A stretch of DNA of 63,471 nucleotides, the filler included, from Folioceros fuciformis (lineage: Eukaryota): assembly GCA_049999805.1 (NCBI GenBank). It is 14 parts of 14 records of this genome, joined end to end, with 100 filler letters (N's around TTAATTAATTAA, not from the genome) between each part and the next. Parts side by side here need not be neighbours in the genome. Positions count along the whole stretch, not along the records: positions 18,969 to 27,579 come from JBNGIO010003050.1; 13 more parts are not named here. The stretch is one strand, 5' to 3'. Numbering within the stretch: the stretch's first letter is position 1; every line of letters begins with the position of its first letter. Shown piece after piece: positions 1 through 58,043 of this stretch. The notes below the pieces were generated by a model. The model saw only the letters and a list, made by a program, of their open reading frames with translations, was not told the origin of the DNA and made no database searches. A program made the translations under genes and the position numbers.

Positions 1-775
1 GCGGGGAAGAAACATGTCAACGCGGACTTCCTTTCAAGACTTAAGACGAGCGGAAGGGTGCGAGAGATGGATGACCGTTTCCCCGACGAAGAACTAGTGG
101 CATTAATCAACGACGAGAACAAACCTACTTAGGTGGGTCCTCAATGGAGTTCGACATAAGTACCCAATGCTCAGGCTTGTGGAGAATCACCGCCTCAAGG
201 AGAGACACAAGCCGCCGTGATAGGAGATCCCCCGACCGCCCATCAACGCCAGGAAAAAGTCGCGGAGCCACCCGTGCTCAACGATGCGCCCGGGAGGAAC
301 GAATTGGTCGTTCGGGCGTCGGGCCGCCCACCTATCAGGAAGTTCATCAATTCCTGGCTCATGGGGTCATTCCCACTGACCTGAGCAGGGAAGGGCGAGC
401 CGTTTTTCTACAGAAGGTAGGACCCTATTGCCTGAAGCACAAGATATTGTACAAGATGGGCCCCGATGGAAAAATTCGCAGGTGTTTGGAGCCAGCGGAG
501 GCCATGTTAGTAGTCGAGGCCTTGCATGTTGAAGAGGCTGGCGGTCACTACTCAGTCCAGGTGACTGCCAAGAAGATCTTGGATACAGGATTTTGGTGGA
601 CGACCCTGCATAGAGACGTATGGGAGTACATCAAGCATTGTGATGCTTGTAAGCGGGTTGGGAGACCGACCCTAGGCACGCAATGGCCCCTAACCTATAT
701 TCTGCCCTTGGCACCCTTTGAAAAATGGGAAATAGACTTCGTCGGACCCATACGTCCTCCAACGCAGCGGCTAAA
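1..775 (+). mobile_element. Ty3/Gypsy pol remnant (RNase H end, integrase zinc-binding domain, start of integrase core)
   Basis: Frame 1 begins GKKHVNADFLSRL, a Gypsy RNase H C-terminal motif. ORF 144..890 contains H..AGGHY...GFWWTTLHRDVWEYIKHCDACKR (HHCC) and PFEKWEIDFVGP. The RH-before-INT order is Gypsy. Confidence 0.9.
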
Positions 776-3107
776 GGGAAGCCCCCAGGATTTTTCCACC
801 ACAGAAATTTTGTCTCATAGATACGAAAAATTACAGGAATGCAATTCCACTTCTATAGCCATAAGCAAATTAAAGAAATTCAGAAGCTAAAGGAGCAGAT
901 GTCTGCTCTAACTGCTTCTGCTCCTACTTCTTGAGAATTGCTATCCGACATCATGGCAGACAACGATAGATTACAAGAGAAAGATCGTCTCACGTCTGCC
1001 AATTATGATGCTTGGAGTTGGAGGATAAGAACTATCCTAGAGGAGAAGCAATTAATGGATGTCGTTGATGGAACACTTCATGAACGATTGGCTGGATAGC
1101 CTTCGGGCTCAACTACACCTTGTGATACAAATGTTCTCTGGACACAAAAGGAAGACGAAACATGGCTCAAGTCAGACCGGAAAGCCAAAACAATTCTGAT
1201 TTCATCAATTTCTCAAGAGATGATTCCGCATGTCAAGTTAACAAAACATTCCAATGAAGTCTGGTCCTTATTTGCTAAGACATATGAAGCAAAGGATATG
1301 ATGACAGAAGTTGCGGCAACTCTTAATATTCAGAATTTGAGGATGAAAGAAAGTGATTCCGTTGAATCTCATGTGGCCAAGTTTGGAGCTGCTCGCGCCA
1401 AACTCGCATCTTGTGGAGTTCTTCTCTCTAAGTCCAGAGCTGCAGTTTAGTTGTTTGCATCTCTGCCACCTAGCTACGAGCAATGGAGCTCGAGCCAATA
1501 GGCTACAGCAATAGTTATTCCAGCCACAGCGACTACTCCTGCAACCACGAATTTGACAGTTCAGAGGTTAGTAGGAGCTCTATTACAAGCATAAGCTTAT
1601 AGAAAACATCGGAAAGCAGGATCTAGTGGAGGGGGCTCATCTCACAAACAATCCGACACTGCTCTTTATTCCAGTCGTGGAAGAGGAAGAGGGAGGGGTC
1701 GAGGGCGTGGAGGATTTGGACGTGGTCGTGGTGGCCAGTCCTCAAATCAGTCTTCCAATCATGGAAACAACTCTAGCTCTCATGGTGGGAAGAAGCCCGG
1801 ACGGTGCAACTACTATAACATACCAGGCCACTGGATCAAGGACTGTAGGAAGAGAAAAGCTAACGAGGCTGCGAAGGGAAAGCAGGCAAAAGGGCATGTA
1901 GCAAGGGCCTCCACACCGGGGCTATTGGTGGCGTGTCTGTATTTTGCTGCTCGTGCTACACATGACTGGTTTCTCGACAGTGGAGCGTCTAACCATATGT
2001 GTGCACAACGGAAGCAGTTTGTGACTTACCTGCCTGCACCAACTTGTCACAAATTAGCGGTGTCATTAGGAGACAATTCAAAATTCCCCATCAAAGGAGC
2101 TTGGATGGGTGTCAAGCCAGATCTGGATCATCTTCGTGTTTTTGGGAGCATTGCATATGCTCATATTCTTGACAAATTGCGACAAAAGTTTTCTTATAAA
2201 TCCAAGAGACACATCTTCATTGGCTACACAGCTGGAATTCATGGATACGAATTGTTTGATCCTACCTCTCGCAGAGTAGTTCATGCTAGGACTGTTGTTT
2301 TTGATGAACGTCCAGTGTTGCAGGCTGTAGACTTAGTTGATCTGGCTGAATCCGAATCTCCAGCTCTAGGACCTGCCCCAGATGTAGAACCCAAGTTAGA
2401 AGGTGATTTAGACGTTGCTGAATTCCCTACCTTTGATCCTTCCTTTGTCCCGGCTATTGCTCCCCATGCTAATCCTGATTTAGTAGATGATGATGTTGCT
2501 GATCCTCCCCAGCCGGATTTCGTTGTTGATCAACCCCTTAGCCCTGTTCCGGATCTTCCTCACGCTCTTGACCCTCCTCTAGAAGATTTTGGAGTTGATG
2601 ATCATGTCGAGTATGTCATGCCTCTTCCTAAGTCTCCAGCTCTTCTTCGCCATTCTGCACGCACCCACAGACCTCGGGATCAGTGGCTGGAGCAACCTTA
2701 CAAACCTGAAGATTGGATTGGTCTTCGGGATCAGGCCCTTGTCCCTCATCCCATGGGTTCTGATGCTGGAAACTTGGCAGTTGAGACTGTTCATCTTGCC
2801 GTCAGTCCTGGTTGCGAGCCACAATCTTATCAGGAGGCTGTTCAAGGGGCTGAATCTCAGCAGTGGCAGGAAGCAATCAAACCTGAGTATGATTCACTTC
2901 TCACTAATGGAACTTGGGAGCTTTGCAGACCCCCTCTGGATAGGAAAATTGTGAGTAGCAAGTGGGTCTTCAAGCTCAAGTATCGGGCAGATGGGTCAAT
3001 TGCTCGCTATAAGGCACGACTTGTTGCTCGAGGTTTTTCTCAAGTTCCTGGCTTGGACTATCATAACACCTTTTCTCCTGTAGTCAACGCTCAGTCCCGT
3101 AGAGTGC
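776..3107 (+). mobile_element. Degenerate, internally deleted Ty1/Copia element (lineage B): gag, protease, post-integrase region, RT start
   Basis: Gag starts at ATG 953 (MADNDRLQEKDRLTSANYDAWSWRI) with a knuckle CNYYNIPGHWIKDC. It also shows protease WFLDSGAS, HLRVFG and [21 protein letters not shown]. Several stops and frameshifts are present. Confidence 0.9.
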
Positions 3108-3421: not shown

Positions 3422-3521
3422 NNNNNNNNNNNNNNNNNNNNNNNNNNNNNNNNNNNNNNNNNNNNTTAATTAATTAANNNNNNNNNNNNNNNNNNNNNNN
3501 NNNNNNNNNNNNNNNNNNNNN
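3422..3521. other. Artificial contig spacer N44-TTAATTAATTAA-N44 (first of 13)
   Basis: Identical 100-nt spacers also lie at 7509-7608, 12204-12303, 18869-18968, 27580-27679, 30205-30304, 38360-38459, 39542-39641, 51296-51395, 55268-55367, 57944-58043, 59992-60091 and 62224-62323. The core gives stops in all six frames. Confidence 0.98.
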
Positions 3522-6500
3522 AGTCAGGATCTCGATCAGACGTAGGAGGACATTCCTGTTATGAGCGACAGAGGTCCAAGTTGTGGACATACGATTCGGA
3601 AGAAGTTGTGAGGGTAACCTGTAGAATCTACATTTCATTTCGACCAATTTCAAACTAGCTTTTTGGTTGATTTGGATCGATTTTGAAGCATGACGTCTTT
3701 AGAAAACGTCATGTTCAATATCGAGAAGTTAGATGGTACTAACTTCCCATTCTGGAAAGAACAAGTGTATAATGTTCTAGTACAGAAGAAGCAGATCAAG
3801 CCCATCAAGCTGCTAGGAGTGAAACCTGTTAGCATGACTCAGGATGAGTGGCAGGATCTAGATGAGCTTGCCAGGTCTACCATCATGCTAACAGTGTCGA
3901 AGTCGGTCTACTTCAACGTGAAAGACAAGACCACAAGTTTCGAGCTATGGCAGAAGCTGTGTGACTTGTATAAGAAGCAAAGTGCGGCTTCTCAGGTGTA
4001 TTGGTTGAAACAGCTGGTGGACTTGAAGATGAAGGAAGGGACGAGGATGTCTGATCATCTGAATGAGTTCAATACCATTTTCAGCCAGCTCTCATCTCAA
4101 GGTATCTCGTTCCCAGATTCCGTGAGAGCTATGTTTCTATTGGTCACATTACCAGAGAGCTGGGACACCTTCCGTACGGCTCTGAGTAATTCCGCTCCTG
4201 CCAGTGGTCTTACCGTTGTAAATGTAGAAGGTAGCCTGTTAACAGAGGAGGTGAACAGGAAGAATATGGAACCTTCGAAAGGTTCTAATGCCCTCATGGT
4301 GAGAGGAAGGTCCACTTCAAAGGGGAAGTACAAGGAGCGAAATTCTTCCCGTAGCAAATCTCGTAGTCGTAACAATGTTGAGTGTTACCATTGTCACAAG
4401 AAGGGTCACATCAGAAGGGACTGCGACAAGTTCAAGAAGGAAAAAGGCAAGGAGAAGAAGCAGAGCGACAACAAGTCAGATTCGAGTATCGAGCGTGATG
4501 AGGTGAACTTTGTTGACGATGAAGATGTTCTTATCTCTTCTTCTTTTGGTTCTGCACAACTGACAGCCATGGAGAGTCACTTATTCTCTAATTGGATAAT
4601 TGACTCTGGAGCATCTTTCCATGTTACTCCGCATAGGGAGTGGTTTAGCACTTATGATGCTACTAGGAAAGGATGTGTTCGGCTTGGAAATAACTACGCG
4701 TGCGAGATAGCAGGCGTTGGTGATGTGTAGCTGAAGTTCGACAACGGATCTTCATTCACACTAAAGGATGTCAGGCATGTTCCGAAGTTGACCAAAAGCA
4801 TGATTAGCGCAGGGCAGTTGGATGACGCTCAGCGGGCTACCACTGTTGGTTTGGAGATCGTTCTTGGAAGATCTCCAAAGGTTCTCTTGTGATAGCTCAT
4901 GGATCGAAGTGTGGCACTTTGTACTCACTTCAGGTAACCACTGTCAAGGATCATGTGATTTGTGTAGCGGAATAGCCAAGTGTTTGTTTCCTTGTGGCAT
5001 AGTCGGTTAGGACATATGTCTCAGAAAGGAATGAAGATCTTATCTCGTTTTGGTTACGTCCCTGCTCTTGACTTCTCCGATTTCTCCGTGTGTGAGCACT
5101 GTTTGTATGGAAAAGAGACGAAGTCACCACATGGAGCAAGAGGTAAACACAAAAGGTGAGGTGTTTACCTCTTGCAAGAGGTAAACACACCGTATACTCC
5201 TCCCCAGAATGGTGTGGCTGAGCGGATGAACAGGACCATCCAGGAGAGGATGCGTAGTTTGTTGTCAAACTTTGGATTGCCTAACGGATTTTGGGCAGAA
5301 GCGGTGGTTACGGCAGTGCATCTTATTAACAGATCTCCTAATAGGGCTGTGGATGAACAGGTTCCAGAGGAGATGTGGTCTGGAAAGAAACCGTCATACA
5401 AACATCTTCGAGTGTTTGGCTGCGAGGCATACTACCATGTTCCGAAGGAGTTTCGCGACAAGTTGGCTCCTAAGTCAAGAAAATGTATTTTTCTTGGCTA
5501 TGGTGAATCTGGTGAGATGGGATACCGTCTGTGGGATCCAGAAGCCAAGAGGATGGTTCGCAGCAATGATGTGTTCTTCAATGAGACCAAGATGCACAAG
5601 AAGCCTACTCCAACTGTGGAGGTGCGACGGGTGGTCTTCCAAGAAGATGGACTTGACCGTCCCGCGCAGGCTGAACATCGTGATGTGCAGGAACAAGTTC
5701 CTCCACTTGTAGACGAGGAGAGAGTGCAACCAGCTCCGGTCGAGGCGCCAGTGCTTCGTAGGTCAGAAAGGATCTCACGTCCTCCTGACAGGTATGTTGC
5801 ATCTCTTGATTATGTCATGCTGACGGATTGTGGGGAGCCCTCTTGTTACCAAGAGGCCATGTCAGTGACTGACAAAAACAAGTGGGAGAAGGCGATGCAT
5901 TCGCAGATGGATTCGCTCCATAAGAACCAAACTTGGGAGTTGGTTCGGTTGCCTAAGGGCAAGAAGGCGTTGCCATGCAAATGGGTGTATAAGATGAAGG
6001 ACATACCCCATTATGGCAAACCCAAGTACAAGGCACGATTGGTTGCTAAAGGTTTTAAGCAACAGCAAGGTATTGACTTTGATGAGATTTTCTCACCAGT
6101 TGTCAAAATGACTACCTTGAGATGTGTTCTTGGTGTGGTTGCGAGGAACGACATGGAACTTGTCCAGATGGATGTGAAGTCGGCATTTCTGCATGGTGAT
6201 CTCCAAGAAGAGGTATACATGCAGTAACCAGAGGGTTTCATTGAGAAGGGCAAAGAGAGTCTGGTGTGCAAGTTAAAGAAGAGCCTTTATGGTTTGAAGC
6301 AGGCACCCAGGGAGCGGTATTTCAAGTTCCACTCATTTATGCTTTCTCAAGGCTACAAGCGTAGCGATATGGATCATTGCCTCTATACAAAGCAAGCTAA
6401 GGATGGAAGCTTGCTCATTCTAGTCCTCTATGTGGATGATATGCTAATTGCTGGGACTAACAGTGATGAGATTTCAGCTTTGCAGTCAAAGTTGAATGGT

Positions 6501-7508
6501 CGCTTTGACATGACAGACTTGGGGGAGGCAAGCCATATTCTTTGCATGCGTATTCGTCGAGACAGACAGAAGCGTTTGATGTACTTGTCTCAGACAGAAT
6601 ACATTAACAAGGTGCTTCAACGTTTCAATATGGAGAAGGGGAAGGTCTTAAGTACTCCTTTGCCTCCATATGTGAAACTTTCGAGCAAGGATTTCCCAAG
6701 TTCTGCGGAGGATAAAGCTGAAATGGAGAAGGTTCCATACTCATCAGCTGTAGGGAGTTTGATGTATGCAATGATTGCTACACGTCCTGACATTGCTTTT
6801 GCAGTGGGAGTGGTTAGCAGGTTCAAGTCAAACCCTGGCAGGAAGCATTGGGAGGCAGTGAAAGGAGTTATGAGGTATTTGAATGGTACAAAAGCTTTGT
6901 GCTTATGTTTTGGTAGTGAAGATGCATCTGTAGTGGGATATACGGATGCTGATTATGCAGGGGATATGGACAAAAGGAGGTCCACATCAGGTTATGTCTT
7001 CATATGCACTGGAGGGGCAGTCTCATGGCGATCTCGTTTGCAATCGTGCATAACGCTATCTACCACAGAGGCCGAGTATGTTGCAGCGACTGAGGCTTGC
7101 AAGGAAGCCATGTGGCTTACTCGTTTAGTGAGAGATTTGGGGATCAAGGGTGAGCTGCCAGTGTTGCATTGTGATAGCCAGAGTGCTATCCAGTTGGCGA
7201 AGAATCCAGTGTTTCATGCGAAGACCAAACATGTGGAAGTGAAGTATCACTTCATTCGAGAGGTGTTGGAAGACAAGAGGGTACAGCTTGTCAAAGTTCA
7301 CACCAGTCAGAACCCTGCAGATGTTCTTACCAAGGGGCTCTCTACGGAGCAATTCGCACAAGCTCGGACACTCATGGGCATGAGCTAGACCACTCTCTTA
7401 TGAAGGTAAATTGGCCTTTAAGTGGGAGGTTGTAGGGTTATTAAAGCCCAATGTGCTTAGGCTAATGTGTTTAGTCTAAGATTAGTGTCTAGTTAATGTG
7501 CTTAGACT
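3522..7508 (+). mobile_element. Ty1/Copia family A (Tnt1/Tork-like), nearly full internal region plus start of 3' LTR
   Basis: Contains leader, gag-pol 3690-7388, PPT AAGTGGGAGG at ~7420-7429 and an LTR starting TGTAGGGTTATTAAAGCCC at 7431. Confidence 0.93.
3690..7388 (+). pseudogene. Copia gag-pol polyprotein, disrupted
   Basis: Motifs: IEKLDGTNF, knuckle [61 protein letters not shown] and ADVLTK. Stops occur at 4728 and 6225, and the integrase core is partly deleted near 5150-5190. Confidence 0.92.
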
Positions 7509-7608
7509 NNNNNNNNNNNNNNNNNNNNNNNNNNNNNNNNNNNNNNNNNNNNTTAATTAATTAANNNNNNNNNNNNNNNNNNNNNNNNNNNNNNNNNNNN
7601 NNNNNNNN

Positions 7609-9723
7609 CTAATTGACTCAAGTATCGGGGGTTCATATGACCTGCCCTGCAGTGCCAGAGCAGTGACTCCTTGTATGAGCTGGAGAGGATGGCAGACCAT
7701 GGGCAAGGGCAGTGCTACATGGATCGGCAGAGTGGTGAATGGTGCAGTGGTTACCTTGGAAAATGATAACCAGACTGTGTTCAGTGGCTAGCTTCCTGAC
7801 GGAGAGTAAATTTTTGGTCATTGTAGGGACGTGGAGCACCCCGTTGATGGTGAGTGTTTCGCCATTAGATAGTCGAAGTTGTACTTCGCCGGTGCCGATG
7901 ATGGAAAGAGGGCTGTCATCTCCCAGCAGCACGTGTTGGTCAAAGGGCACGTCGTGATACGTGCTAAACATGTCTCTACTGCTACAAATGTGAGTTGTAG
8001 CGCCGGAGTCGAGAAACCATCTGGTCTTGTCGGTCCTCGTGAGGGTGAGGCAAATGGCCAGGATGAAACTTGTCGGGGTGGTCCTTGAAGTAGTGAGGTG
8101 AGACTCATTCTAGGGTGTGTCCCTCCTTGGCTCTCCGCTCTGCTTCTTCCTGCACTCGTGCTCAAAGTGGCCTGGTATTTTACACCAGTTGCAGATGCCC
8201 TTTTGAAATGATCTGTTAACTGGGCGATTGCTGGGAGCAAAATTGCCTTGTGTTGCTTGCCTAGGTTGTCTGCGAGTCAAGAGATTGTTGCGGAAACCTC
8301 CTCTACGAGCTCCACGACCCCTCGATGTGAAAAGCGCATGGTTGGGTCCAGTTGCAGGCTTATGTATAGTTGATCGACTAGCTTCTTCCTCCAGAAGGGC
8401 TCCGAGAACTTCTGCGAATGTGTACGCAGGTATTGATCCTGCTTGAGCTGCACTTTGTGCCTGGCGAAGGGCTGAACTTTGTGAGCTCACGAAGGTTCTG
8501 TATGAAGCAGGAAGAGAGGTTAGTAGGGCGACCGCCGCCTGGTACTCGTTCAGTGGGCTTCCACTTGATGCAAGTCTTGCTCTTGCTGCTCTGAAGGTGT
8601 GTACATGTTGTTCGACTGTTTCGCTCTCCTTCATTCTTAGCTGATAAAATTGCCGTGTGGCATTTACGATAGACATGGAGATTTGCGCTGCGAACATGTC
8701 TTTAAACACTCTCCAGATCTCGTGGGCAGTCTTCTGACTTGAGTATGTTGGGGCATGTTTTTGTCGAGTGCTGAGAATAGGATGCTAATGGCTCGTTTAT
8801 CTTTCTTTGCCCAGGCTGCAATGTCATTGGCGGTGGCGCCTCCTGCAGCTGTGGGTTGATGAACTGTGCCGTCCACGATCCCCATAAGGTCGTGCTCTTC
8901 CAATAATGCAGTGACTCGCATTTGCCAGGTGTCGTAGTCGCTGCCGGTGAACCTGTCTCGGTCCCTGAACTCAATCTTTGTTGTGTTGACAATTGATGTG
9001 CTGGTAGCTGGGTGTGTTGTCATTGCTCTTGTCTCCTACCTCCTGGTGCCGCGATTTTGCAAGGGGTCAAAAGGGAGCATGCGCGGTGCGCTAATTATTG
9101 ACGCCGGGTTGTGAACAAGTCACGCATCAAAGCGGTTATGATTTCCATCTGAGATTCGAGACGAATTATCTGGATTCGGAGATGATCTTCAGAGAGAGAA
9201 TCGCGCGGGCGGTCCTGTTCATTAGCAGGTGAGTGTAGTGGAAGGAAGATTGTTCTGGTTCGGTCGGATTCACAGAATTCGGTACGCTTATTGCAGTTGC
9301 TGCAGGGTGCGTTGGGAAAGCGCGGTGGCCGCGCATGCGATGCGCGAACGGGCTGCACCTTACTCCGAGGCATCTCGCAGATTCAGGGTCAGACGTCCGA
9401 GTTGCCGTGCTTGGCACCCTGAGTCATAAAAACCTGGTTGTCGCTGCGTGCGGGCGTAGGTCACACGGGGCATCGAGGCTAATCTGCACGCCAAAGAACC
9501 ATATGGCTCTGATACCATAAAGCGGCAATGTATATGGTGCAAAGATGCGCGTACTGACTGATTAAGTTCGGGGTCTTATATACACGTTACCGTATTTAGT
9601 TGAACTGTAATTAACTGTTTTATAGTTTGTAACTATGCGAACCGCTAATTCTCATAACTAGACGAACCGTGCCCTAATCCCGTCGAGTCTTCGTTCCGTC
9701 AACGTGTCGCTATTGTCACAACA
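7609..9723 (-). mobile_element. Copia lineage B, 5' half (5' LTR, PBS, upstream ORF, gag, protease)
   Basis: LTR ~9518-9723 and tRNA-iMet PBS (TGGTATCAGAGC on the minus strand) at 9506-9517. Gag starts at 9023 (KIEFRDRDRFTGSDY) with knuckle CNWCKIPGHFEHEC. The protease region contains VLHVPTMTKNLLSV. Confidence 0.9.
9095..9373 (-). CDS. Putative extra ORF upstream of gag (CxxC plus coiled-coil-like C-terminus)
   Basis: 92-aa ATG-initiated ORF between PBS and gag, with CSNC and a heptad-like LRIQIIRLESQMEIITAL. Confidence 0.45.
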   Translation of the reverse strand: MPRSKVQPVRASHARPPRFPNAPCSNCNKRTEFCESDRTRTIFLPLHSPANEQDRPRDSLSEDHLRIQIIRLESQMEIITALMRDLFTTRRQ

Positions 9724-11520: not shown

Positions 11521-12583
11521 CCTAATCTTCTACATTCATCTTGGTCTGCGTAGCGTGCTTACCAAGCTCAACAAGTAGAGTCGTGTAGTAGTGTGTTGGT
11601 GGCACTGCGCCTTAGCGCTTCCGCCTTGCACTCCTCGTGCACAAGCCCTACAGCGGTGGCATGGCATTAAGGTGCTCTTCTTAACTCTAGCTCATGCTCT
11701 CGGCTAGTAGCCCTCAATTGCTAATCCAATTGGCTAGCCTTCTTAGTTTAGAAGGCAAGAAAGCAATTTTTCCTTGACAACTTGGCCCCCAAACCTGGGC
11801 AAGCTTCCAACCAAGCCCTAAAAAGTGGCATGAGGGAAACCAACTTTTTGAGGGAAAAAATGTCTTTTATAGGGGAAGGGTGAGGGTAAGGGGAAGGGAA
11901 TGGCTTCATGGCTTTTTTTTTTTGTACATATATATTTATGCGTATATTTGTAGATAGAATCTACAAGTTTTAAATGCATGTATCTACAAGCTTTCTGGCG
12001 CCCTTGTGTTTCATGTATCATTTTAGGGTGCTCAATGCCATCTATTACTAAACCCCTTGGATTGGAGGATGTCAAAGCAATGAAGTTTTGGCAAGGGAAC
12101 TCAAGCAATAGAGAAAGGGATGGGAGTTGTATCTAGGAAAGCATCCATGGATTTAATACGATGCTAAGACAAAGATGGTTTGGTATAAAATTTGGAGGCA
12201 ATANNNNNNNNNNNNNNNNNNNNNNNNNNNNNNNNNNNNNNNNNNNNTTAATTAATTAANNNNNNNNNNNNNNNNNNNNNNNNNNNNNNNNNNNNNNNNN
12301 NNNTTTTTAATCAAGTTTAGTCGAACCAACTGCTCCCCGCATAATTCACACAAGAACCTGATCTCCATGATCTAGCTGCTAAAGTAAGGCAATCTTAAGA
12401 TGCTTGCCTCAAGGGGGTCATGCTACCTTTTCAGGACCACAAATCCTGACCAGTGCCTTTTCAATGCCGTACCTCAAGACAGCATGTATAGGCTCTCATT
12501 AGCCTTCAGAGGGAGCACATCAAAGAGGAGCATCACGCTCCATGGGAGATAGCCTCCACCACTGGTCAGGTTACGTTCAGCTT

Positions 12584-18294: not shown

Positions 18295-18868
18295 TGTAGG
18301 GTTATTAAAGCCCAATGTGCCTAGACTAATGTGTTTAGTCTAAGATTAGTGTCTAGTTAAGTATCATTAGTTGAGATTAGCTTAAGCTAATCTCTAGGAA
18401 GCTTCTTGTGCAGCTTCCTGTGGGCTTCTTGTGAAGCTTCCTAGGGAGCTCTTCTAGAGGGTATAAATACCCCCTTGAGCTCCCTTGTACGTGGGACTCT
18501 ATTGTGAGAGTGTGACCTCTCTTTCTCCTCTCCTCCTTGCCTCCTCCTCTCCTCTCCTTCACCATGTAGCTCCTAGAGCGTTCCTTCAAGTGGTATCAGA
18601 GCTTGGGTGTGGAGCAAGGGTGATGGTGCGCTGAGGCTTTGGAGTGATGGCAGCATCGGAGTGAACTGGACCTTGTGCGACACAAAGGAGGAGTACGGGA
18701 CGCTCAGAGCGCCGGTGAAAAGGGGGCACGAGCGTAGAGGGCGATTCGATTCGGCCAGCCCCGGCAGCGGGCGCGAGATCACGACCAGCCCCGGCCGCGG
18801 GCACCGGATGGGGGGCTAGGCCCCGGCCGCGGGCACCGGATGGGGGGCTAGGCCCCGGCCGCGTGCGT
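18295..18868 (+). mobile_element. Copia family A 5' end: 294-bp LTR (18295-18588), PBS (18591-18602), GC-rich leader
   Basis: TGTAGGG...TTCA LTR with TATAAAT at 18462 and PBS TGGTATCAGAGC. A 32-bp GC tandem repeat lies at ~18789-18868. Confidence 0.92.
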
Positions 18869-18968
18869 NNNNNNNNNNNNNNNNNNNNNNNNNNNNNNNN
18901 NNNNNNNNNNNNTTAATTAATTAANNNNNNNNNNNNNNNNNNNNNNNNNNNNNNNNNNNNNNNNNNNN

Positions 18969-19429
18969 ATCCGGCGCCCGTGGCCGGGGCTGGCGGCGAT
19001 TCGGCGCCCTCTACGCCCGTGCCCCGTTTGCACCGGCGCTCCGAGCGTCCTGTGCTCCTCCTAAATGTCGTACAAGGTCCAGTTCAGTCCGATGCTGCCA
19101 TCACTCCAAAGCCTCAGCGCACCATCACCCTTGCTCCACACCCAAGCTCTGATACCACTTGAAGGAACACTCTAGGAGCTACATGGTGAAGGAGAGGATA
19201 GGAGGAGGCAAGGAGGAGAAGAAAGAGAGGTCACACTCTCACAATAGAGTCACACAAGAAAGGGAGCTCAAGGGGGTATTTATACCGTCTAGAAGAGCTC
19301 CCTAGGAAGCTTCACAAGAAGCGCACAGGAAGCTGCGCAAGAAGCTTCCTAAAATAATGGTACTTAACTAGACACTAATCTTAGACTAAACACATTAGTC
19401 TAGGCACATTGGGCTTTAATAACCCTACA
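18969..19429 (-). mobile_element. Copia family A 5' end, second insertion: 270-bp LTR (19160-19429), PBS 19146-19157
   Basis: Reverse-complement match to 18295-18780 with a different flanking sequence. Confidence 0.92.
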
Positions 19430-20313
19430 CCATACAACTAGACCTTGAACCAGATCAGCATTTGGAAATACCTGAAGTCCTATATGTACCAGGACTAGCC
19501 AAGAATCTCGTCTCTGTGAGAAAAATTGATGAATTTGGCTATTTCATCTGCTTTGGTGGTCGCAAGTGTGTTGTGGAGACACCTGATGGAATGTTGATGG
19601 CCACTGGAGATTTACAAGCTGATGAACTATACCACCTTGATGTCAAGAAGGACCAGGCAAACTCTGCCACATCATTAGCTCATATGGTTAGGCCCTCACT
19701 CACATATCTGTGGCACCTGAGGCTAGGACATCTCAACTTCTAGAAACTTCACCACTGTGCATCTTTTCTAACTGAACCAACTGAGAGAGCAACCAGGGTG
19801 CTTGGGCTGGTGCAAAGTGACCTTTGTGGGCCTCTTCCCACTTCTCTTGGAGGCAAAAACTACTTCATCACATTTATTGATGACTTCTCTTGATTCACCG
19901 TCGTATGTAACATGAGGCTCAAGTCCTCCACCTTGGAGTGCTTCAATGAATACAAGGCATGGGCAGAGAAACAAATTGAGCAGACCTTGTAGACCTTGTG
20001 TACAGATAACGGAGGTGAGTACATTTTCGGAGAATTCCAAGCCTTTTGCACCCAGCATGGAATTGCTAGACAGCTTACCAATGCAAGGACTCCTCAGCAA
20101 AATGGAGTTGCAGAAAACAAAAACACAGCATTGGAAACTTCAACGTCTAGCATGCTAGCATATGCAAATTTACCTAAATGCTATTGGGCGGAAGCCGTGG
20201 CTTATGCCACATATATTCAAAATTGAATTGAACACTCAGCTGTCAAGGGCAAGACTCCATTTGAAGTCTTGACCAGAACCAAGCCTGATATCTCACATAT
20301 GCGAGTTTTTGGG
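19430..20313 (+). mobile_element. Copia protease-end, GAG-pre-integrase and integrase fragment
   Basis: Motifs VLYVPGLAKNLVSV, LWHLRLGH, TDNGGEY, TPQQNGVAE and HMRVFG. Confidence 0.88.
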
Positions 20314-23300
20314 TAATCCTTGCCTAGCTTTAGACAATGTGCTGAAATGGATTTCCTGCTGTCCGTGTCTGATGCCCAATCGGCATCACAGAAACAGGTT
20401 AGCAAAAGTCTTTCAGGCCTCTTGGTGTACATGAGTCCCATGTTTGGGGTCCCTCCCAAATAGCGGAGAATACGTTGTGCAGCATGCCAGTGAGCTGTTC
20501 CATAATTACTCAGGAACTAGGATGTGATGCCGATAGAGTGTGCTAACTCCGATCTCGTCCAGTTTCGGAAATATATGCATACTCCCACTGCCAACATGTA
20601 CGGTATTTTCTCCATCTCTAGCCTTACTTGTTATGTTTTAGGACACTACTCAAGGGACAACTTGTCTCCCACTACCATAGGAGTTGCAGCAGGTTTTGCA
20701 TTTTCCAGTCTAAACCTTGCTAGCACTTGCCTGACAAACTGAGCCCGGTGCAGGAAAATGTTGTGTCTTGACAGATTCTGGACGATCTGTATGCCTAGGA
20801 AGAATGTCAGCTGTCCAAGTTCAGACATGTCAAACTCGGCAGTCAGGAAACCTTTGACTCTAGCCATGAGCTGAGGGCGGCTAGCAACTATGACGGCATC
20901 GTCCACATACAAAGCTAAGTAAACGACCCCACTTTTATCATGTAGCATATAGACATTGCTATTGGCTTCACTATGAACAAAGCCACAACTTCTCAAATAG
21001 TTGTCTATGCGATTATACCACTCACGTGGTGATTGTTTGAGACCGTAAATGGTTTTTACCAGTCTGCAAACCTTGTTGGGGTGTTTTGTGTTGATGTAGC
21101 CCTCAGGCTGTCTCATGTAGATATTTTCCTCAAGCTTGCCATTAAGAAACGGCGGCTTGACGTCCATGTGCTGCAGGTTGTAGTCATACTAGGCAGCTAA
21201 AGCAAGCAAGGTGCGGATGGAGGTAGCTCGGACTACGGGGAGAATGTCTCCGTGTAGTCCAGCCCTTCGACTTGGCTGTAGCCTTTCGCCACCAATCTGG
21301 CTTTATAGCGTGCTACTGATCCATCTGGGTTCAACTTTTTCTTGAAGACCCACTTGCACATTATTGCTTTCCTTTCAGGAGGTAGGTCTTCGAGGACCCA
21401 AGTCTTGTTGTCAACCAATGACTTGTACTCTTAATTTATTCCTTCCATCCACTGCTTGCCTTTTGTTGGATGATTGATTGCTTCTTGGCAAGAAAGAGGC
21501 TCGCTCATGTCAAGTGGTGTGCTCCCATCGTGAACCATGAAGGTGGCAGGTGAGAATGGTGGCTGCAGCCATTCCGACCGTGATGACGTCCGCCTCCTTG
21601 TGCCAAGGTCTGTCCCTCGTCGTAGGGTTTCTGAAGGAGCTGCAGCATCTTCTTGTGGTGAAACATCAGAGGGACCAGGTGAGTCAGCACGGTCCAGATC
21701 CTCTTGCATTTGTTCAGCTGTTTCTGCTGACCCAATTGGCTGTCCATCCAGGTCATCTCTTAGGAAAGTGCTGAGCTCATCAGGCGGTGGAGGTGGTGTG
21801 ACAGGGACAGCTGGCTGAGAAGCTATAGGTAGGTATGGCTGTGACCCAAGTTCTTCTACAGATGGCTGATTGTAGGTCTCACTAGAGGACATCTCTTCTA
21901 CTGACTTATTAGTGGGATGCAGAAGGATGTGCTCATTGGAAATGACACTACGAGCATGTGTGATGAATCTAGTGTCTGGGTCAAACAACTTGTAGCCTTT
22001 TATACCTTCAGTGTACCCTATGAAGACAAACTTGTGGGCTTTGTAGTCTAGTTTAACCCTTTGATATTCTGAGAGATGTGCATATGCTGGGCACCCGAAG
22101 ATTCTAAGGTGATTAATTCTTGGTTTATGTGATGTCCATCTCTCAAATGGGGTGGTTCCCTTGGACACACTTGTGGGCAGTCTGTTGATCACATAGACTG
22201 CTATAGAGACTGCCTCTCCCCAGTAACCACGTGACAGGCCTGACAATTTCAGCATGGACTTTGCAGTCTCCTGTAGGCATCGATTGGTCAGTTCAACAAT
22301 TGGATTCTGTGAAGATGTGTAAGGTACGGTAAGTTGCCTTAATATCCCCAGCTCTTTGCAGTAATCCATAAATGCCTCTGAACAGTACTCCCCTCCATTG
22401 TCGCTGCCCAGGATTTTTATGAGCTCCCCAGTCTGGTGTTGGGCGAAGCTCACGTACTCTTAGAAGCAGCCCAAAGTCTGGCTCTTCAGCTTAAGAAGGT
22501 ACACGACCACATACCTGCTCCAGCCGTTAATAAATGTAAGAATGTATTTAGCCCCGCCGAAGGTGTTTGTGGACATGGGACCACATATGTCTGAGTGCAC
22601 AAGCTCCAGTATCTTGTTGGCTCTTGTAGGATTAGCATCTATGAATGGCTGGCTGTGATGTTTGCCGAAAATGTAGGCCTCACAGAACCGTTTGTCGGCA
22701 CACTACAGCACAAACTTTTCTCGGTACAGGTTGTTGGCATTCACCATGTCCTTCAGCTTGTCAAAATTTACATGACCAAGTTGGTAGTGCCAAAGCATGG
22801 CATCTTGTTTTTGGAGGTCAGCTTGACTGACATTGACGAGTGGCTGACACAGCTTAGAGGCAAAGTCTAGCTTATAGATGTCATTAATAGGTGTTCCTAC
22901 AGCTTTGACCTTGTTGTTTGACTTAGGGTCTGTAATGATGCAGGTGTCGCCATTGAAGAAGATATTTAGCTATGTGTGTTTGGAAAATCTGAGAAGAGCC
23001 ACTAAGTTCTTTACGACACATGGGACATGAAGGACGTCCCGAAGCTGTATGGTAGTTTTATCTTGCAGCAGCACTGCTACTATTCCCATCCCAACTATGG
23101 GGCATGCTCTCTCATCTCCCATAAGCACAATCTGACTAGGTGGTAGTTTTGTGTATTCACTGAAGGCTTCCTTAGTGTGACAGCAGTGTGCAGAGGCTCT
23201 TGAATCTAGGAACCATGCATCTCTGTCTAATTTTGATGACACTAAACACACAACTAGCAAGGTGTTGGACTTACGTTGTGCGATGTTCATCTCTGCAGGT

Positions 23301-25540
23301 GGGGCAGTCCTCCGGGGCTCCCCAGCTTTTTCTTTCTACACTCAGCTTCAAAGTGGCATGGTATCATGCACCAGTTACATGGGCCTTTTTTCTTTGAGCC
23401 AGGAGCTGCAGGTCGTCTTTTGTAAGCAGTGTTGTTGGTTGATGGCCAAGGCTGACGTGGTAGCAGCTTCCTAGGGCCTCTGTTAACATAGAGCACCCTA
23501 TTTGAGGCCTCTCCCCATGGGAGGAACCACCCCTGCTTGCCTTATGTGTGGACTCTTCTTCCTGAAGAGCTCCGATCAAGTCAGACAGGGAGATTCATGG
23601 TGGCTGACCTGCAGCTTTTGCAGTTGCTGCTGCTCAAAGGTTTGAGCTATGATTGCTTACAAAAGTACGGTAGCTTTCTGGCAAAGAGAGAAGGAGGGCA
23701 ACCGATGCTTGCAGCTCATCAATTTTCGTGCCACTTGAAGTAAGCCTCGCCCTGAGTACCCTGAATTTAGCAACGTGTTGCTCCACTGTCTCATGTTCTT
23801 TCATTTGGCAGTTGTAGAAAGCTCTTGTGGACTGAACAATGGAGCTGCCGTTCGTTACTTGGTATATCTGGGTTAATGAGTCCCAAACTGCCTTCGTGGA
23901 TTCTGCATCTTGAGTATGCAACATCATTGACATGTCAAGTGCAGACTGAATAACCACTAGTGCCTGTAGGTCACACTTAGCCCATGCATCCTGGTCAGCT
24001 TGGCTGGCAGTTTGTGGAGGTTTGGGAGCTTGCCCACTTACAACCTCCCAAAGACCGTTCTCCCGCAGGATTGTTTTGACCCTCATTGCCCAGATATCAA
24101 AGCAAGAACCTGAAAACCTATCTTTTTTCTTTAAAGTCAATTTTCACGTTGTGGACTGTTGTGTTGTTTGATACAGCCCCGCCTGGATTTGCCATGTTGT
24201 GCACTATGCTAGCAGCTAGTGCAGCCCTTGTGGCTTGTTCTACTTGTGCTAACTGAGCAAGCTGTGCGAGTTGTGCTGCAGACAAGGCTGGACGTGTGCT
24301 AGACTCTACAGTATTGTGTGAAAAGGTGAGGGGGTCGAAGTAGTCTTCGGTTAAATTTGAATCATCTGTGTCTTCAGTACTTCTACTTCGTTCAGTTCCT
24401 CTACCTCTGCCAGGTCTTCGAGGGTTTCTATGTGTTTTGCTGCCTCGACCACCACGACCTCCATATGACATGTACCCTTTTACTGTGGGTGAACCGGTGA
24501 GGGTTCAATTGCTTCCTCCCTTTGCAGTTCGTTCTCGAAGACTTTCTCCATACTTAGCATGTTCCCGACCACTGGTGGAATTGATTCTTGTAAGGTACTT
24601 GACCCACAATGCACACTAGCAGGTTGTATTGTTTTAGGGATTGACAGGGCAGATACTTGTGAGATTAGAGTGTCTAATTTGAGGTTGGTGTTGCTGAATC
24701 TAGAGGTTAACTCTACAATGTGATTGCGCAAGATTACTACTAATTCATACACCTCGACCAGAAGCTGTGTTGCAGGTGAAGGATAGGAATTTATATCATT
24801 TGTGCAATCTTGACAAAGTAAGGTGCGATTACTTGCCAACCTGCGTGCAGAGTGAGCAGAGATTTCACGCGCCTGTGCAATTTCTTGCCGGATTTGTGTG
24901 TGTAAAGAATGTAGTGGATCAGGTTTGTGACGAACGGACTGATTGACAGTGCGTCTATGCTGGTGCAGGTTCTTGCAGTGTGAATTGAAGAAATGGGTGA
25001 GTCTTCGACACAAGAGTTCGACGGAGTCTCCTGGCGCACCCGCGAATGGATCGACCAACTGCTGTTTGTCTTTTCCTCTAAATCTCGGCATAGCGACGCG
25101 CACTAGCTATAGTAGTGCTCAACGGCGCTTGCAAGAAAGGAGTCAGCCATCTCCCCTAAGCGGCTTAGCGATTTCTTGAGTGCGGCGATCACTGCCCTGA
25201 AATGTAAGTGAGGTAGGTTTTTGATGCAGTTTGTGCTTCTGTAGATCGCGCAAACGCTAGGGGAGGCTGAGTCCATCCTGCTCTGATACCATGAAGCGGA
25301 TTGCAGGATCGAACGAGGAGGAGATGGAAGCAAGAAGAGAAGAAAAGAAGAATGCTTGATTGAGGGCCGTGTGGCCTTGAAAGGTGTGTGGGCACCTGTT
25401 CGTGGTGACCCGTGAGCATGGCATTTAATATTTAGGACACGACCTTGAGACGCGTCTATAGCTATCCATCGTTTGGACTTAATTAATAAACACTGGCTAT
25501 TTATATAATTATGCGACCCTAACCCTAACTTTATTATATG
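20314..25540 (-). mobile_element. Copia lineage B, near-complete degenerate element (LTR from 25292, PBS 25280-25291, upstream ORF, gag-pol to RNase H start)
   Basis: PBS, RG-rich Gag N-terminus from 24471, KIDFKEK/DRFSG and knuckle CNWCMIPCHFEAEC. Pol motifs are WFLDSRAS, SDNGGEY, LYVDD and FCDADWASD. Confidence 0.9.
24480..25091 (-). CDS. Putative extra ORF upstream of gag (~203 aa, His-rich, CQDC, coiled coil)
   Basis: Uninterrupted ORF from ATG 25091 that stops 9 nt before the Gag ATG at 24471. Confidence 0.55.
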   Translation of the reverse strand: MPRFRGKDKQQLVDPFAGAPGDSVELLCRRLTHFFNSHCKNLHQHRRTVNQSVRHKPDPLHSLHTQIRQEIAQAREISAHSARRLASNRTLLCQDCTNDINSYPSPATQLLVEVYELVVILRNHIVELTSRFSNTNLKLDTLISQVSALSIPKTIQPASVHCGSSTLQESIPPVVGNMLSMEKVFENELQREEAIEPSPVHPQ

Positions 25541-25544
25541 TATA

Positions 25545-27579
25545 GTGAGGAGGAAGGCCTAAACTTGGCAAACAGTGTTCTGTTTTTTTTGAAAGCTTGA
25601 GCAAAGGCTGTTTTTGCTTAGCGAAGAGTCAGCTGCACATTCAGGAATTGTTGAGATCTAATTGGGGCTTGTGGAGTGCTAGAGCTCTACAGTAGTGCGG
25701 GGAGTTGCACTCAAGATTGTCAAAAACATATGTTGGAAGATGCATGAAAGTGTTTTGACAATCTGTCCACAAGGGACTTGGTGGCACGGCAAGCAAGAGA
25801 AGGCAACTGAACTGAGGTGCAGGACAAGTGTTGGTGCGTAAAGGAGCCTGAATCATGGCTAACGTGCAGGGATCAGACAATATCTCTCAGGTTGTGGGAG
25901 AGAAGTTGGATAACAAGAATTTTGCTTTGTGGAAGTTCAGGATGAATAACTTCTTGGTAGGTAGAGGCTATTGGGACCTCTGCACAAGTGATGAGAGTGA
26001 ACCAGAGATGGATCGTACTCCATCACAGGAGCAAAAGACTGCTCACAAGCATTGGACTGAGAGAGCATGTAAAGTGTTACACTAGCTCTCCTTAAGTATT
26101 TTAGATGCTATGGTCATACAGATCACGGAATGTGAGTCTTCGAAGGATGCATGGAACATACTCATGAGGAACTATGGGAATGTCACACATGCTAGGAAAA
26201 TCCAGTTGAAGTAGCAGTTAAACAACTTGTCACGAGGTAGCAGATCCATACTCGTGTATACAATAGAGGTGAAGACCATAGCTGATCAACTTGCTACAAT
26301 CGGTGCAAGTGTGACAGAAGATGACATGGTTGCAATTACTCTAAACGGACTTGGCAAGGAATACAAGTCCTTTGACACATCAATCTCTGTGAGAGCTGAG
26401 TCCCCAAGTTGGGATGAATTGGTTGCTTTGTTGCTGCATGAGGAAGTTAAGCTTGGTATGAACACAGGTTCAGGTATGTCTCAATGGAGAGACACTATTT
26501 TGTTTTCTAACCAGCGTGGGAGAGGCCACAGAGGTCGTGGTTCATTCCGAGGACGGGGTGATGCTCGGAACACGTAGAATCAGCAAGACAATTGGCGTGG
26601 AGGAAATGCGCAAGGCCGGAGAGGATCTGGAAGTTTTAGAGGCGCAGGTAGAGCCACAAGAGGAAGAGATGGTTCCTTTCAATCTCATGACCATTCCAAT
26701 AGAGACAATGAGTGTTACTACTGTGGAAAAGGTTGGTCATATTGCTAAGGACTACTATAAGCAGCAAGCAGACATGAGAGGAAAAGGAAGGCAGCATGGG
26801 AACTATGCCTCCTCTAGTAATGCTGGAAATGACCAGGGTAGGTTGTTTGCGATGCAACATCTTTCTGAACAGGATGGCAGAATGATGAGAGATGGTACAT
26901 TGATTCAGGAGCATCAAACCACATGACTCTGCATGACAAGTGGTTAACAAGATGGATGCAGGTCCCCATGGTCCTGTGTGTGCAGGAGATGACACACAAC
27001 ATGACATAAAGCACAGAGGAATTGTTCCTCTTAGTATACCGAATGGTCAGCAGAAGAGTCTCCAAGATGTGCTGCATGTTCCAACCATTATGAAGAACTT
27101 GTTGTTTGTTGGACAGATGGCTGAACAAAATTTGTAGGTTCGATTCAATAAGGATGGATGCTTTTTTGAAGAATATGATAGAGGGCGCAAACTGATTGCT
27201 AAAGGTAGTAGGAATGGACGGATATTCACTCTGGATGCATCCATTCCAGAGCTAAATGCAGCAATGTTTACAAATGATGCAGGTGCCATATGTGATGTTG
27301 AAATATAGCATAAGAGGATTGGGCATGTGAACATAGAGAAGTTGAAATCTATGCAACAGAAAAGCGTGGTGGAAGGATTGCCCAAGTTCAAGTACGGTGA
27401 TCTTGGTCATGGGTGTTCTACATGTCAATTTGGAAAACAGTCAAGGTTTCCATTTGTGCGACACGTGCAGAACAGCTCAAGACCTTTGCAATTGATACAC
27501 TCTAATGTATGGGGTCCTTCACAGAATGCATAGTTTGGAGGAGCCCACTACTATGTCTCCTTCATTGATGATTTCAGCA
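25545..27579 (+). mobile_element. Different Copia element: gag, protease, GAG-pre-integrase, degenerate
   Basis: GEKLDNKNFALWKFRM, RG-rich linker, knuckle, WYIDSGAS-like motif, VLHVPTIMKNLL and CSTCQFGKQ. Confidence 0.88.
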
Positions 27580-28423
27580 NNNNNNNNNNNNNNNNNNNNN
27601 NNNNNNNNNNNNNNNNNNNNNNNTTAATTAATTAANNNNNNNNNNNNNNNNNNNNNNNNNNNNNNNNNNNNNNNNNNNNCCTCCACACCAGCCACAGCCC
27701 GCACTAAGCCGTGGAGCCAGGCAACATCCGAGCTCGACCTCTCCATTCAGGATGAAAAGTCCGCGCGGCAGCTGTAAACCGCGGGGTAGGACTCCGGGAT
27801 CCGGGATCTCCCAGCCAGCCAGGAACGCGCTGCCATTGGCGCGATCTTTCCTTTGAAAGTATCCACGCTACTGCCAGTCCCACCAGGTCGACGTTGACAA
27901 TTCCTTCCTCACTGTTCGCAGCCTGTGTTCACACGTGATACCAGGAACACAACGGACGGGATATTTTCCTCTATCCTAACCATGATCCATCAATCGATAT
28001 CTGACCCCTATGAACAAGATGGTGCCACGCATCAAGTTATCGCAGACATATAAATCGTACATAAACACGAGTTTCAAGATACGCTGAATAGTTTAAATTT
28101 TATCCATCATTTCAATTAATATTAAAAATTATAATTATATATGTATTGACTCATGTGTCTTTTCACAAGAGATATAAAGGTTGTACATTTTGTAAGAAGG
28201 ATAGGTGTATAGTCAAGAAGTGATGATATACATGTTGTGGTCAATATAAAGGAATGTGCATATATTGCTTGGCAAACCGGGATGTTTCTCACTTTAATTT
28301 AAATCATTTGAAATCCTCTCATTCTTTTCAAATTAATCCATTAGTTGAGCATGGAAATAATAAATCTTGTACACCAAGTGACCCCTTGAGAAATCATCAA
28401 GTTTCATTAGAGGTTATCTTGCA

Positions 28424-30304: not shown

Positions 30305-31035
30305 ATGCCCGAGGGCTGGCCGTCAGCGCACCCGCCTACGCTCGAGGTCAGGCCGCCGCGCACCCGCGCCTCGCGGGCCTGGCGCCCCTGCAGCGGGGCG
30401 CCCTGGTCAGGCCGCCAGCTTGGGCCGGGCTGGTGCCCCAGCGCCCCTTGAGGTCAAGCACCCTTGGTGGGGGCGCTCCCAAGGCCTGCCTGCGCCTTGT
30501 TGGGCAGCTTGATCGGGGCTTGACGGCCCGCGCAGCCGGGGTCAGGCACCCCGCCCAGGGTGTCCGTGGCACGCCCTGGCGCCCTTGTGGGCTGGGCGCC
30601 CGTGCGGGATGGCAGCCCCTTCTATCCTCGACAGCGGGTTGTTGCTCACAGCTCCCACTCACTTCGATGCCTTTCTTGTAGAGCACTTGCAACCATCACC
30701 TATCCAGCTTCACACCCAAGCTCCACAACCTAGCTCTGATACCACTTGTAAGATCACTAGAGAAGCTACATGGTGAAGGAGAGAGAAAGAGGCAAGGAGG
30801 AGGAAAACGAGAGGTCACACTCTCACAATAGAGTCTCACTAGCAAGGGAGCTCAGGGGGGTATTTATACCCTCTAGGAGAGCTCTCTAGGAAGCTTCACA
30901 AGAAGCGCATAGGAAGCTGTGCAAGAAGCTTCATACAGATTAGCTTAAGCTAATCTAAACTAATGGTACTTAACTAGACACTAATCTTAGACTAAACACA
31001 TTAGTCTAAGCACATTGGGCTTTAATAACCCAATA
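30305..31035 (-). mobile_element. Copia family A-related 5' end: LTR 30747-31035, PBS 30733-30744, GC-rich leader
   Basis: The LTR is homologous to 18295-18588; the leader is diverged but again very GC-rich. Confidence 0.88.
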
Positions 31036-55267: not shown

Positions 55268-55367
55268 NNNNNNNNNNNNNNNNNNNNNNNNNNNNNNNNN
55301 NNNNNNNNNNNTTAATTAATTAANNNNNNNNNNNNNNNNNNNNNNNNNNNNNNNNNNNNNNNNNNNN

Positions 55368-57192: not shown

Positions 57193-58043
57193 CGCCGTAG
57201 AATGAGAACAAATCTTGTCCCGAGTCTGTCCCGAGTCTGTCCCGAGTCTGTCCCGAATCGAGTCTCGTACTCGTACATCTGGCGTGGAACACGAACCAGA
57301 ACGGCGAACGCATACAGCATCCGCCAAAGGGATGCGGAGTGTGAAGCTCTGAACATGGGCGTGGTGTTGCTTCACAACAAGTAACACCCCCTTACAACGG
57401 GGGTGGGGCAGAACCAGAAGCCAAAACAAGGGTCAGGTTTAAACACCGGACGCAGCACTAGGCCTCCAAGTAGCCCGCCCTCCTCTTCTAGGAGGACTCG
57501 CAGCCAGCACCCTTGCTGCTGCTGCTCTTTATTTAAAATCACGAGTCAACAAGAACATACAGAGCTAGAGGGTTAGAGAGAACTCCCCATCTTTGCCTAA
57601 GCTAGGAGTTTAGCTCTCCCTCCTCTTGGCCTCCTCCCACAGCTCCTTCACAGCACCTTTCATGTGCTCTCACAGCCCAAGCAACACATGCTCTCAAGGC
57701 ATAGCCCAAGCACCCAGTGCTCTCAAGGCTTTGAGGAGATACTCATCTCAACTCCACTGAACTTCCCTTAGCCCTTGGCTAGGTCCCCTTTTTATACACA
57801 AGCTCAAGTCACTAACTTAGCAACTACTTACTTAAGCACTTACTTAAGCCTTAAGCTATTATTCGCTACCACACACTTTTTCCTAGGGCTGCATGCTTCT
57901 CATGCTTTTAGTAACCTGCTCTCTACTAAACATGCCTTTGCATNNNNNNNNNNNNNNNNNNNNNNNNNNNNNNNNNNNNNNNNNNNNTTAATTAATTAAN
58001 NNNNNNNNNNNNNNNNNNNNNNNNNNNNNNNNNNNNNNNNNNN

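Follow-up and report, generated by a model that had tools for sequence, protein, structure and literature searches.

We analysed a 63,471-nucleotide window of the Folioceros fuciformis genome (assembly GCA_049999805.1; "the window" denotes this whole stretch of DNA), in which a Ty1/copia long terminal repeat (LTR) retrotransposon lies on the minus strand of the piece at 18969-27579 (JBNGIO010003050.1). Between its primer-binding site (PBS) and gag, a leader of about 1.1 kb holds an uninterrupted open reading frame (ORF) of 203 codons, here called ORF0. In sense order, the element comprises:

25292..25572, minus strand: putative 5' LTR; inner end firm (...CA just before the PBS), start inferred
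25280..25291, minus strand: primer-binding site TGGTATCAGAGC; exact 12-mer match, directly after ...CA
25103..25276, minus strand: upstream ORF of 57 codons; first AUG after the PBS, in strong context (AGCAGGATGG)
24480..25091, minus strand: ORF0, 203 amino acids plus stop; ATG at 25091, stop codon at 24482-24480
24118..24504, minus strand: arginine-glycine (RG)-rich frame, -1 relative to ORF0; from translation
23634..24143, minus strand: gag core (DUF4219 and Retrotran_gag_2; E = 2.8e-06 and 1.7e-30)
23287..23541, minus strand: C-terminal part of gag with CNWC...H....C knuckle, in another frame; from translation and a tblastn frame change
22460..23335, minus strand: protease and N-terminal part of integrase; three ORFs in one frame, separated by stops
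21431..22459, minus strand: integrase core and SH3-like domain (SH3_retrovirus E = 8.6e-24, rve E = 1.2e-4)
20232..21188, minus strand: reverse transcriptase (RVT_2; E = 2e-44), cut off at about 20232

The assignment to Ty1/copia rests on the domain order, with integrase (22345-21236) ahead of RVT_2 (21188-20232) on the sense strand, on the gag type (Retrotran_gag_2, DUF4219 and a CCHC knuckle, CNWCMIPCHFEAEC, in the translation of the C-terminal part), and on a tRNA-Met-type PBS beside the LTR end. We take the TGGTATCAGAGC site to be of the tRNA-Met 3' end type. The PBS table in supplementary file 3 of PMC6317226 agrees with this typing. The putative LTR carries a TATAAATA box near 25505 and a TG start at 25572, both read from the sequence; its outer boundary is tentative, the window containing no second LTR. 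Window self-comparison found no LTR pair, which is no argument against Ty1/copia membership because the copy is truncated: it breaks off at about 20232 within the 8.6-kb piece, where a plus-strand integrase fragment (20062-20313) abuts it. Its gag-pol (24143-20232) contains at least four frame changes and at least six in-frame stops, in line with the many lesions reported in a preliminary description of the locus. What was there named the best copy is a 3'-truncated, decayed Ty1/copia copy. The nearest database relative of its integrase (P0002, 55% identity) is a polyprotein that begins in the protease and therefore offers no leader for comparison; the named integrase relatives are plant proteins.

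Reading of the leader bore out the preliminary description on several points. The ORF0 frame is uninterrupted from 25106 to 24480 (208 codons stop to stop), encodes the CQDC and LVVILRNHIVELTSRFSNTNLKLDTLISQVSAL motifs, and is flanked by the exact PBS (25291-25280) and by the gag core (24143-23634); the RG-rich frame is likewise present at 24504-24118. The stop of the upstream ORF lies 12 nucleotides (nt) ahead of the ORF0 ATG. Two ATGs are of note in the RG frame, one at 24471 in weak context, 9 nt past the ORF0 stop, and one at 24195 in strong context, 17 codons ahead of the KIDFKEK gag motif and at about the position where a related gag (8664-9035) begins. In the window copy, the frame of the gag core differs from both the ORF0 and the RG frames.

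Coding-like signal in the leader and its other copies

We place at about even the chance that the PBS-to-gag stretch of about 1.1 kb is a family-specific leader of a Ty1/copia family that is coding or was so until recently. Statistical support for pre-gag coding is moderate and rests on ORF length, the openness of the whole leader, coding-like codons and contigs from two organisms. In dinucleotide shuffles of the 1136-base leader, an ORF of at least 208 codons arose in 10 of 5000 replicates, and in 6 of 2000 in a repeat, giving a length P of about 0.002-0.003 within the leader. The leader as a whole can be traversed free of stops with two frame changes, against a shuffle mean of 9.95; this was equalled by one of 2000 shuffles (P = 0.0005). 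The four bases occur in ordinary proportions (A 30%, C 27%, T 22%, G 21%), and a T content of 22-24% implies no general shortage of stop codons. No tandem repeat was found beneath the ORF0 frame, and no Rfam family matched the leader. Predicted RNA structure was no better than in shuffles (z = -0.58), so that structure does not account for the leader's length.

Codon usage was scored with a model trained on the homology-supported Copia ORFs of the window. ORF0 reached 0.074, and 0.057 when the focal element (E6) was excluded from training, with frame 0 best in both halves. By comparison, the element's own decayed coding pieces scored 0.045-0.14 and the RG frame 0.102, while the score of the upstream ORF was not frame-specific. 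Chance ORFs of at least 140 codons with equal dinucleotide content averaged 0.010 (standard deviation 0.034), and about 22 of 958 attained 0.074 (P = 0.023), placing ORF0 above roughly 98% of composition-matched chance ORFs. The integrity of ORF0 beside a broken gag-pol says little. With about 10 lesions per 3.9 kb of gag-pol, some 1.6 would be expected in ORF0 and the chance of finding it intact would be about 0.2, or about one time in five; the intact frame is compatible with an ancestral real ORF.

Further copies were sought in DNA sequencing runs from two organisms (X1 and X2 from organism A, X3 from organism B) by aligning contigs at least 80% alike to 19000-25900; the details below come from 40 of the 897 differences, 12 of the 36 places with insertions or deletions (indels) and 15 of the 27 joints. 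Of the sampled words of 23634-25291, a fraction of 0.67 was present in X1, 0.54 in X2 and 0.21 in X3. Aligned contigs numbered 1401 in X1 (298 of them at 99% likeness or above), 1428 in X2 and 333 in X3, covering 30, 30 and 28 of 30 bins, respectively. Pieces lying on ORF0 were found in X1 (24560-24828, 46 differences) and X2 (24509-24792, 48 differences), and X3 contributed a piece at 24985-25212 with 22 differences and one gap in 228 bases. Because its leader is covered by contigs of two organisms, the leader belongs to a multi-copy family. None of the 12 indel places among the 36 fell in 24480-25106. One further run, X6, which we guess to be RNA, yielded five aligned contigs, none on the leader, and carries no information on expression.

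The same contigs bear on the RG-rich frame. An X2 contig spans it into the gag core (23833-24237) with six differences, and within the 26 bases where the RG and gag frames overlap, most of the X1 and X3 depth is one base different in length from the window copy. On the strength of this one-base difference, the Gag of other copies probably has the RG-rich stretch as its N-terminal part.

The leaders of related elements

The preliminary description had pointed to comparable frames in three further elements of the window and proposed a Copia lineage characterised by a pre-gag ORF like that of Ogre elements. This generalisation is not supported. The frame near 49871-50557 belongs to an element (E9) whose longest leader frame (49772-50179, 135 codons) has a length P of 0.07 and a non-coding codon score of -0.028; that at 9095-9373, in element E3, has a longest-ORF P of 0.42; and 782-952 lies at the end of a Ty3/gypsy integrase ORF (75-887, plus strand, Integrase_H2C2, E = 1.8e-10) lying directly upstream of a Copia gag fragment, with no PBS found. 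The leader upstream of a fifth gag (61735-62223) gave a longest-ORF P of 0.86. Shuffle tests on frame switches gave P values of 0.06 (E9), 0.66 (E3) and 0.75 (fifth-gag leader).

Translation does show the common gag start and the CN(W/Y) knuckle that had been described, at gag identities of no more than 31-56%. For the gags at 50537-51226, 8113-9035 and 60988-61845, pairwise identity with the focal gag included is 37-56% (40% between the focal gag and that at 50537-51226); the gag at 1100-1450 reaches about 31%. Exact PBSs precede two of the comparators (49583-49594, plus strand; 9517-9506, minus strand). Leader lengths up to the AUG that precedes the gag motif are about 0.96 kb (E9), 0.48 kb (E3) and 1.08 kb (focal element), and long leaders are thus shared by at least three of these elements. 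Blastn and tblastx between the leaders detected nothing in common beyond the PBS and the gag start, even between two elements whose gags are 56% identical, and profile comparison gave no similarity either. Reverse transcriptase is present in one of the four elements only, so that a common reverse transcriptase lineage is not demonstrable. Of the proposed pre-gag coding region, what stands is the moderate statistical support in the focal family; a coding leader would be a feature of that family and is not a trait common to the four named elements.

In the E9 leader (49595-50563), the gag frame contains seven stops against 13 in each of the other frames (P = 0.08), which hints weakly at an in-frame extension that has decayed. 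Beyond the window, a gag-profile scan of metagenomes recovered two loci at 26-28% identity, outside the focal gag group, and a scan of viral contigs recovered none. A search with the gag core for longer proteins found none at a cut-off of 1e-10, which was over-strict and gives the result little weight.

Competing explanations for the open leader

The explanation that comes closest to displacing a coding leader is that the leader is long and non-coding and ORF0 stands open in it by chance, with nothing translated ahead of gag; we regard this as possible, if on the unlikely side. Its length P, the openness of the whole leader and the codon pattern all speak against chance, in a sequence of ordinary composition where stops are not generally scarce. 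These values have to be read with a selection effect, the leader having been picked as the best of several, and by our own arithmetic about 0.2-0.3 chance ORFs of this size are expected per 63-kb window in six frames.

A number of observations weigh against a coding leader, and many of them favour a chance frame. ORF0 matched no Pfam family at E up to 10 and no PDB sequence; a word-indexed protein search gave no match, and scans of metagenome and viral contigs found no relatives. Against 1.84 billion representative proteins, phmmer returned a single match (P0001), which we do not count as a homologue. The single-sequence AlphaFold2 model is all-helical but unreliable (mean predicted local distance difference test score 41.8), and in an atlas feature search the recognition of ORF0 was 1934, below the mark of 2300 reached by 91 of 100 proteins of known families. 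No counterpart of ORF0 was detected in related elements of 40-56% gag identity, whose leaders are likewise long and whose frames are at chance level. A strong-context AUG opens the 57-codon ORF ahead of ORF0. True 200-codon coding windows average a codon score of 0.187, with 3% as low as ORF0; the codon pattern of ORF0 is intermediate between those of chance ORFs and of genuine Copia coding sequence. In organism B, one X3 contig has a joint between 24571 and 24841 that passes over 269 bases (not a multiple of three), another matches solely the PBS side and conserved patches of gag, and the leader piece among those reported (22 differences in 228 bases) is more diverged than the gag-pol pieces (3 in 192, 8 in 312 and 7 in 259). 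The three substitutions seen inside ORF0, among the differences covered, fall at codon positions 2, 2 and 3, far too few to judge.

The dismissal of P0001 rests on how its score arises. The protein has 289 residues in four 64-residue repeats, each about 40% identical to ORF0 residues ~78-121, and the E-value of 3.8e-6 is the sum over four copies of one match of 40-50 residues. P0001 may represent a satellite that originated in a related leader and is translated, or the resemblance may be due to chance. The predicted ORF0 product is basic over residues 1-100 (isoelectric point 10.1, eight His and four Cys), hydrophobic and helical over about 105-150, and acidic in its tail; no membrane span was found, the best 19-residue Kyte-Doolittle mean being 1.37. 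The top-ranked atlas clusters were the helical C1orf109-like, CINP and plant DUF7795 ones (0.89-0.92, 199-204 of 256 features), a ranking that is weak because the recognition of ORF0 lies below the mark, and that is a lead only. C1orf109-like or DUF7795 identity was not confirmed, as PF15011 and PF25071 gave no match at E up to 10. Partial duplication of gag was rejected (hhalign probability 0.07%; Smith-Waterman z of at most 1.8 against nine gag pieces). By eye only, the C-terminal half of ORF0 resembles a series of MKE..E.V..H, SLP.SY, LLEEE and SRGRG motifs in the C-terminal two-thirds of gag, and modelling residues 60-160 as two copies scored 0.09 (mark 0.32), giving no answer either way. 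ORF0 is without a convincing homologue, a reliable fold or a detectable likeness to gag.

It is improbable that one giant N-terminal extension of Gag, initiated at the AUG at 25276, formerly took up the whole leader and has since been split into three frames by frameshifts. Three successive open frames do tile the leader, the RG-to-gag break looks private to some copies, and the longest leader frame of E9 is in frame with its gag, with the stop counts given above. Against this, the upstream ORF and ORF0 share only about 4 nt, and ORF0 and the RG frame only 25 nt, where by our estimate from stop density a simple indel would leave an overlap of some 50 codons on average. No length difference at the ORF0/RG junction was among the 12 best-supported of the 36 indels, which do include weaker ones elsewhere, and by reading the 25-nt overlap contains no canonical -1 slippery heptamer. 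That the leader is a captured (transduced) and now decaying fragment of a host gene or mobile element is very improbable: such capture by LTR retrotransposons is described in PMC7264820, would explain coding-like codons without needing a role and would fit the clusters that the atlas ranks first, but phmmer found no source gene among representatives that include plant proteomes, Pfam with PF15011 and PF25071 gave no match, nothing similar occurs elsewhere in the window, and the atlas ranking is weak.

Possible role, known parallels and genomic surroundings

If the leader is coding, its order would be the 57-codon upstream ORF, then ORF0 as a separate orphan protein, basic in its N-terminal half and probably helical in its body, then the AUG of the RG-rich extension, which would continue into Gag in other copies. 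ORF0 might be a cistron that is translated before Gag on the full-length RNA, and Gag might be reached by reinitiation or leaky scanning, a route suggested by the stop-to-AUG gaps of 12 and 9 nt and by the presence of only four AUGs in the 620 nt between; splicing would be an alternative. The basic ORF0 protein and the RGG-type extension of Gag may, as a guess, help to package or chaperone the RNA of the element. The full version of this proposal is decidedly tentative and on present evidence unlikely to hold in every part: that ORF0 would be a working accessory gene, the first cistron of a polycistronic RNA in a family common to two plant species, with Gag made by termination-reinitiation or leaky scanning and a basic helical product serving in RNA handling or against host silencing. 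The roles named in the preliminary description (oligomerisation, nucleic-acid binding, anti-silencing) are guesses, for none of which any analysis gave evidence.

The REXdb survey scored the position and orientation of extra ORFs that reached 250 codons (PMC6317226). Its class of forward ORFs upstream of gag, eORF-5'F, is reported for 33% of Tekay, 23% of TatII and 21% of Ogre elements, all Ty3/gypsy, and is given as characteristic for no Ty1/copia lineage; Bianca and Ikeros have entries of 2-6% whose column is not assignable from the text copy (PMC6317226). ORF0 resembles this class in being an orphan sense frame between the 5' LTR/PBS and gag, and shares its position, forward orientation and lack of tandem repeats, but at 208 codons stop to stop it falls short of the 250 codons that define the class. 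A further mark of the class is a frame kept apart from the polyprotein in all elements and found in most copies of a family; for ORF0, the observation bearing on this is the contig coverage of the region in two organisms. Proteins of extra ORFs are highly heterogeneous and 21.4% resemble a known domain (PMC6317226); since most lack known domains, the orphan status of ORF0 alone is no argument against it. Ogre/Tat elements are recognised by RT-RH-INT order, an aRH domain and a tRNA-Arg PBS (supplementary file 3, PMC6317226). An Ogre-type ORF1 was rejected for the focal element, which has the Copia domain order and a tRNA-Met PBS, the likeness being positional only. Bryco is listed with a half-tRNA-Met PBS (PMC6317226), whereas the focal element has a full tRNA-Met PBS.

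Within Ty1/copia, SIRE is the sole lineage given with a characteristic extra ORF, located 3' of pol in 74% of elements (PMC6317226). Like the focal family, the SIRE clade combines a Ty1/copia backbone with an additional, fast-evolving orphan sense ORF (PMC6317226, PMC7264820), but this eORF-3'F ('env-like') lies between pol and the 3' LTR, whereas ORF0 precedes gag; the 3' part of the focal element is missing. By analogy of layout, the nearest parallel would be the MDG1 group of Drosophila Ty3/gypsy elements, which have two small, successive accessory ORFs in sense orientation between LTR and gag (PMC11952523). These, sORF1 and sORF2, are expressed in dependence on the element's own start site, and sORF2 is a membrane-anchored FAST-like protein (PMC11952523), whereas ORF0 has no stretch resembling a membrane span. 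The MDG1 group belongs to another superfamily in another kingdom, and the likeness seen is one of layout. In plants, extra genes of LTR elements are described mainly in Ty3/gypsy groups and, within Ty1/copia, as the 3' ORF of SIRE. The review in PMC7264820, in the part available, is concerned chiefly with ORFs located between pol and the 3' LTR. A search of the literature outside subscription journals and bioRxiv supplements yielded no report of a Copia lineage that carries a sense ORF ahead of gag.

Were ORF0 a gene, it would be a pre-gag accessory gene in a superfamily for which the REXdb survey lists none as characteristic. A Copia family keeping a sense ORF before gag would be a new arrangement, and would raise the question of how its Gag is translated. 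The extra genes of LTR retrotransposons are candidates for roles outside replication, among them cell-to-cell spread, chaperoning and counter-silencing. At present the case consists of one decayed copy with statistical support only, and is a lead for a genome-wide check.

The window itself is composed of 14 short pieces joined by 13 linkers of the form N44-TTAATTAATTAA-N44, across which adjacency is meaningless:

3422-3521, 7509-7608, 12204-12303, 18869-18968, 27580-27679 and eight others: linkers

It is rich in Ty1/copia sequence, with many copia gag, integrase and reverse transcriptase frames. A nearly intact Copia gag-pol in three long ORFs lies at 3687-7388 (plus strand), and a partial copy of it, 94% identical, in another piece at 58714-59836 (plus strand). 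On the focal piece, a second Copia gag-pol fragment in the opposite orientation (25852-27533, plus strand) begins about 280 bases past the inferred outer end of the focal LTR. A frame of 706 amino acids for a pentatricopeptide repeat (PPR) protein (55315-57432, minus strand) runs into a linker, and the piece next to it contains diverged partial copies at 52306-54133 that are 72-83% identical.

A further repeat occurs in three copies that are 84-90% alike (18295-18774, plus strand; 18974-19429, minus strand; 30713-31031, minus strand), each with an exact TGGTATCAGAGC site (at 18591, 19146 and 30733); two of the copies face one another from either side of a linker. The bin at 19231-19461 has, in runs X1 and X2, a summed word depth above 44,000, far above the remaining bins. 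The repeat probably represents part of the LTR/PBS region of a highly abundant family.

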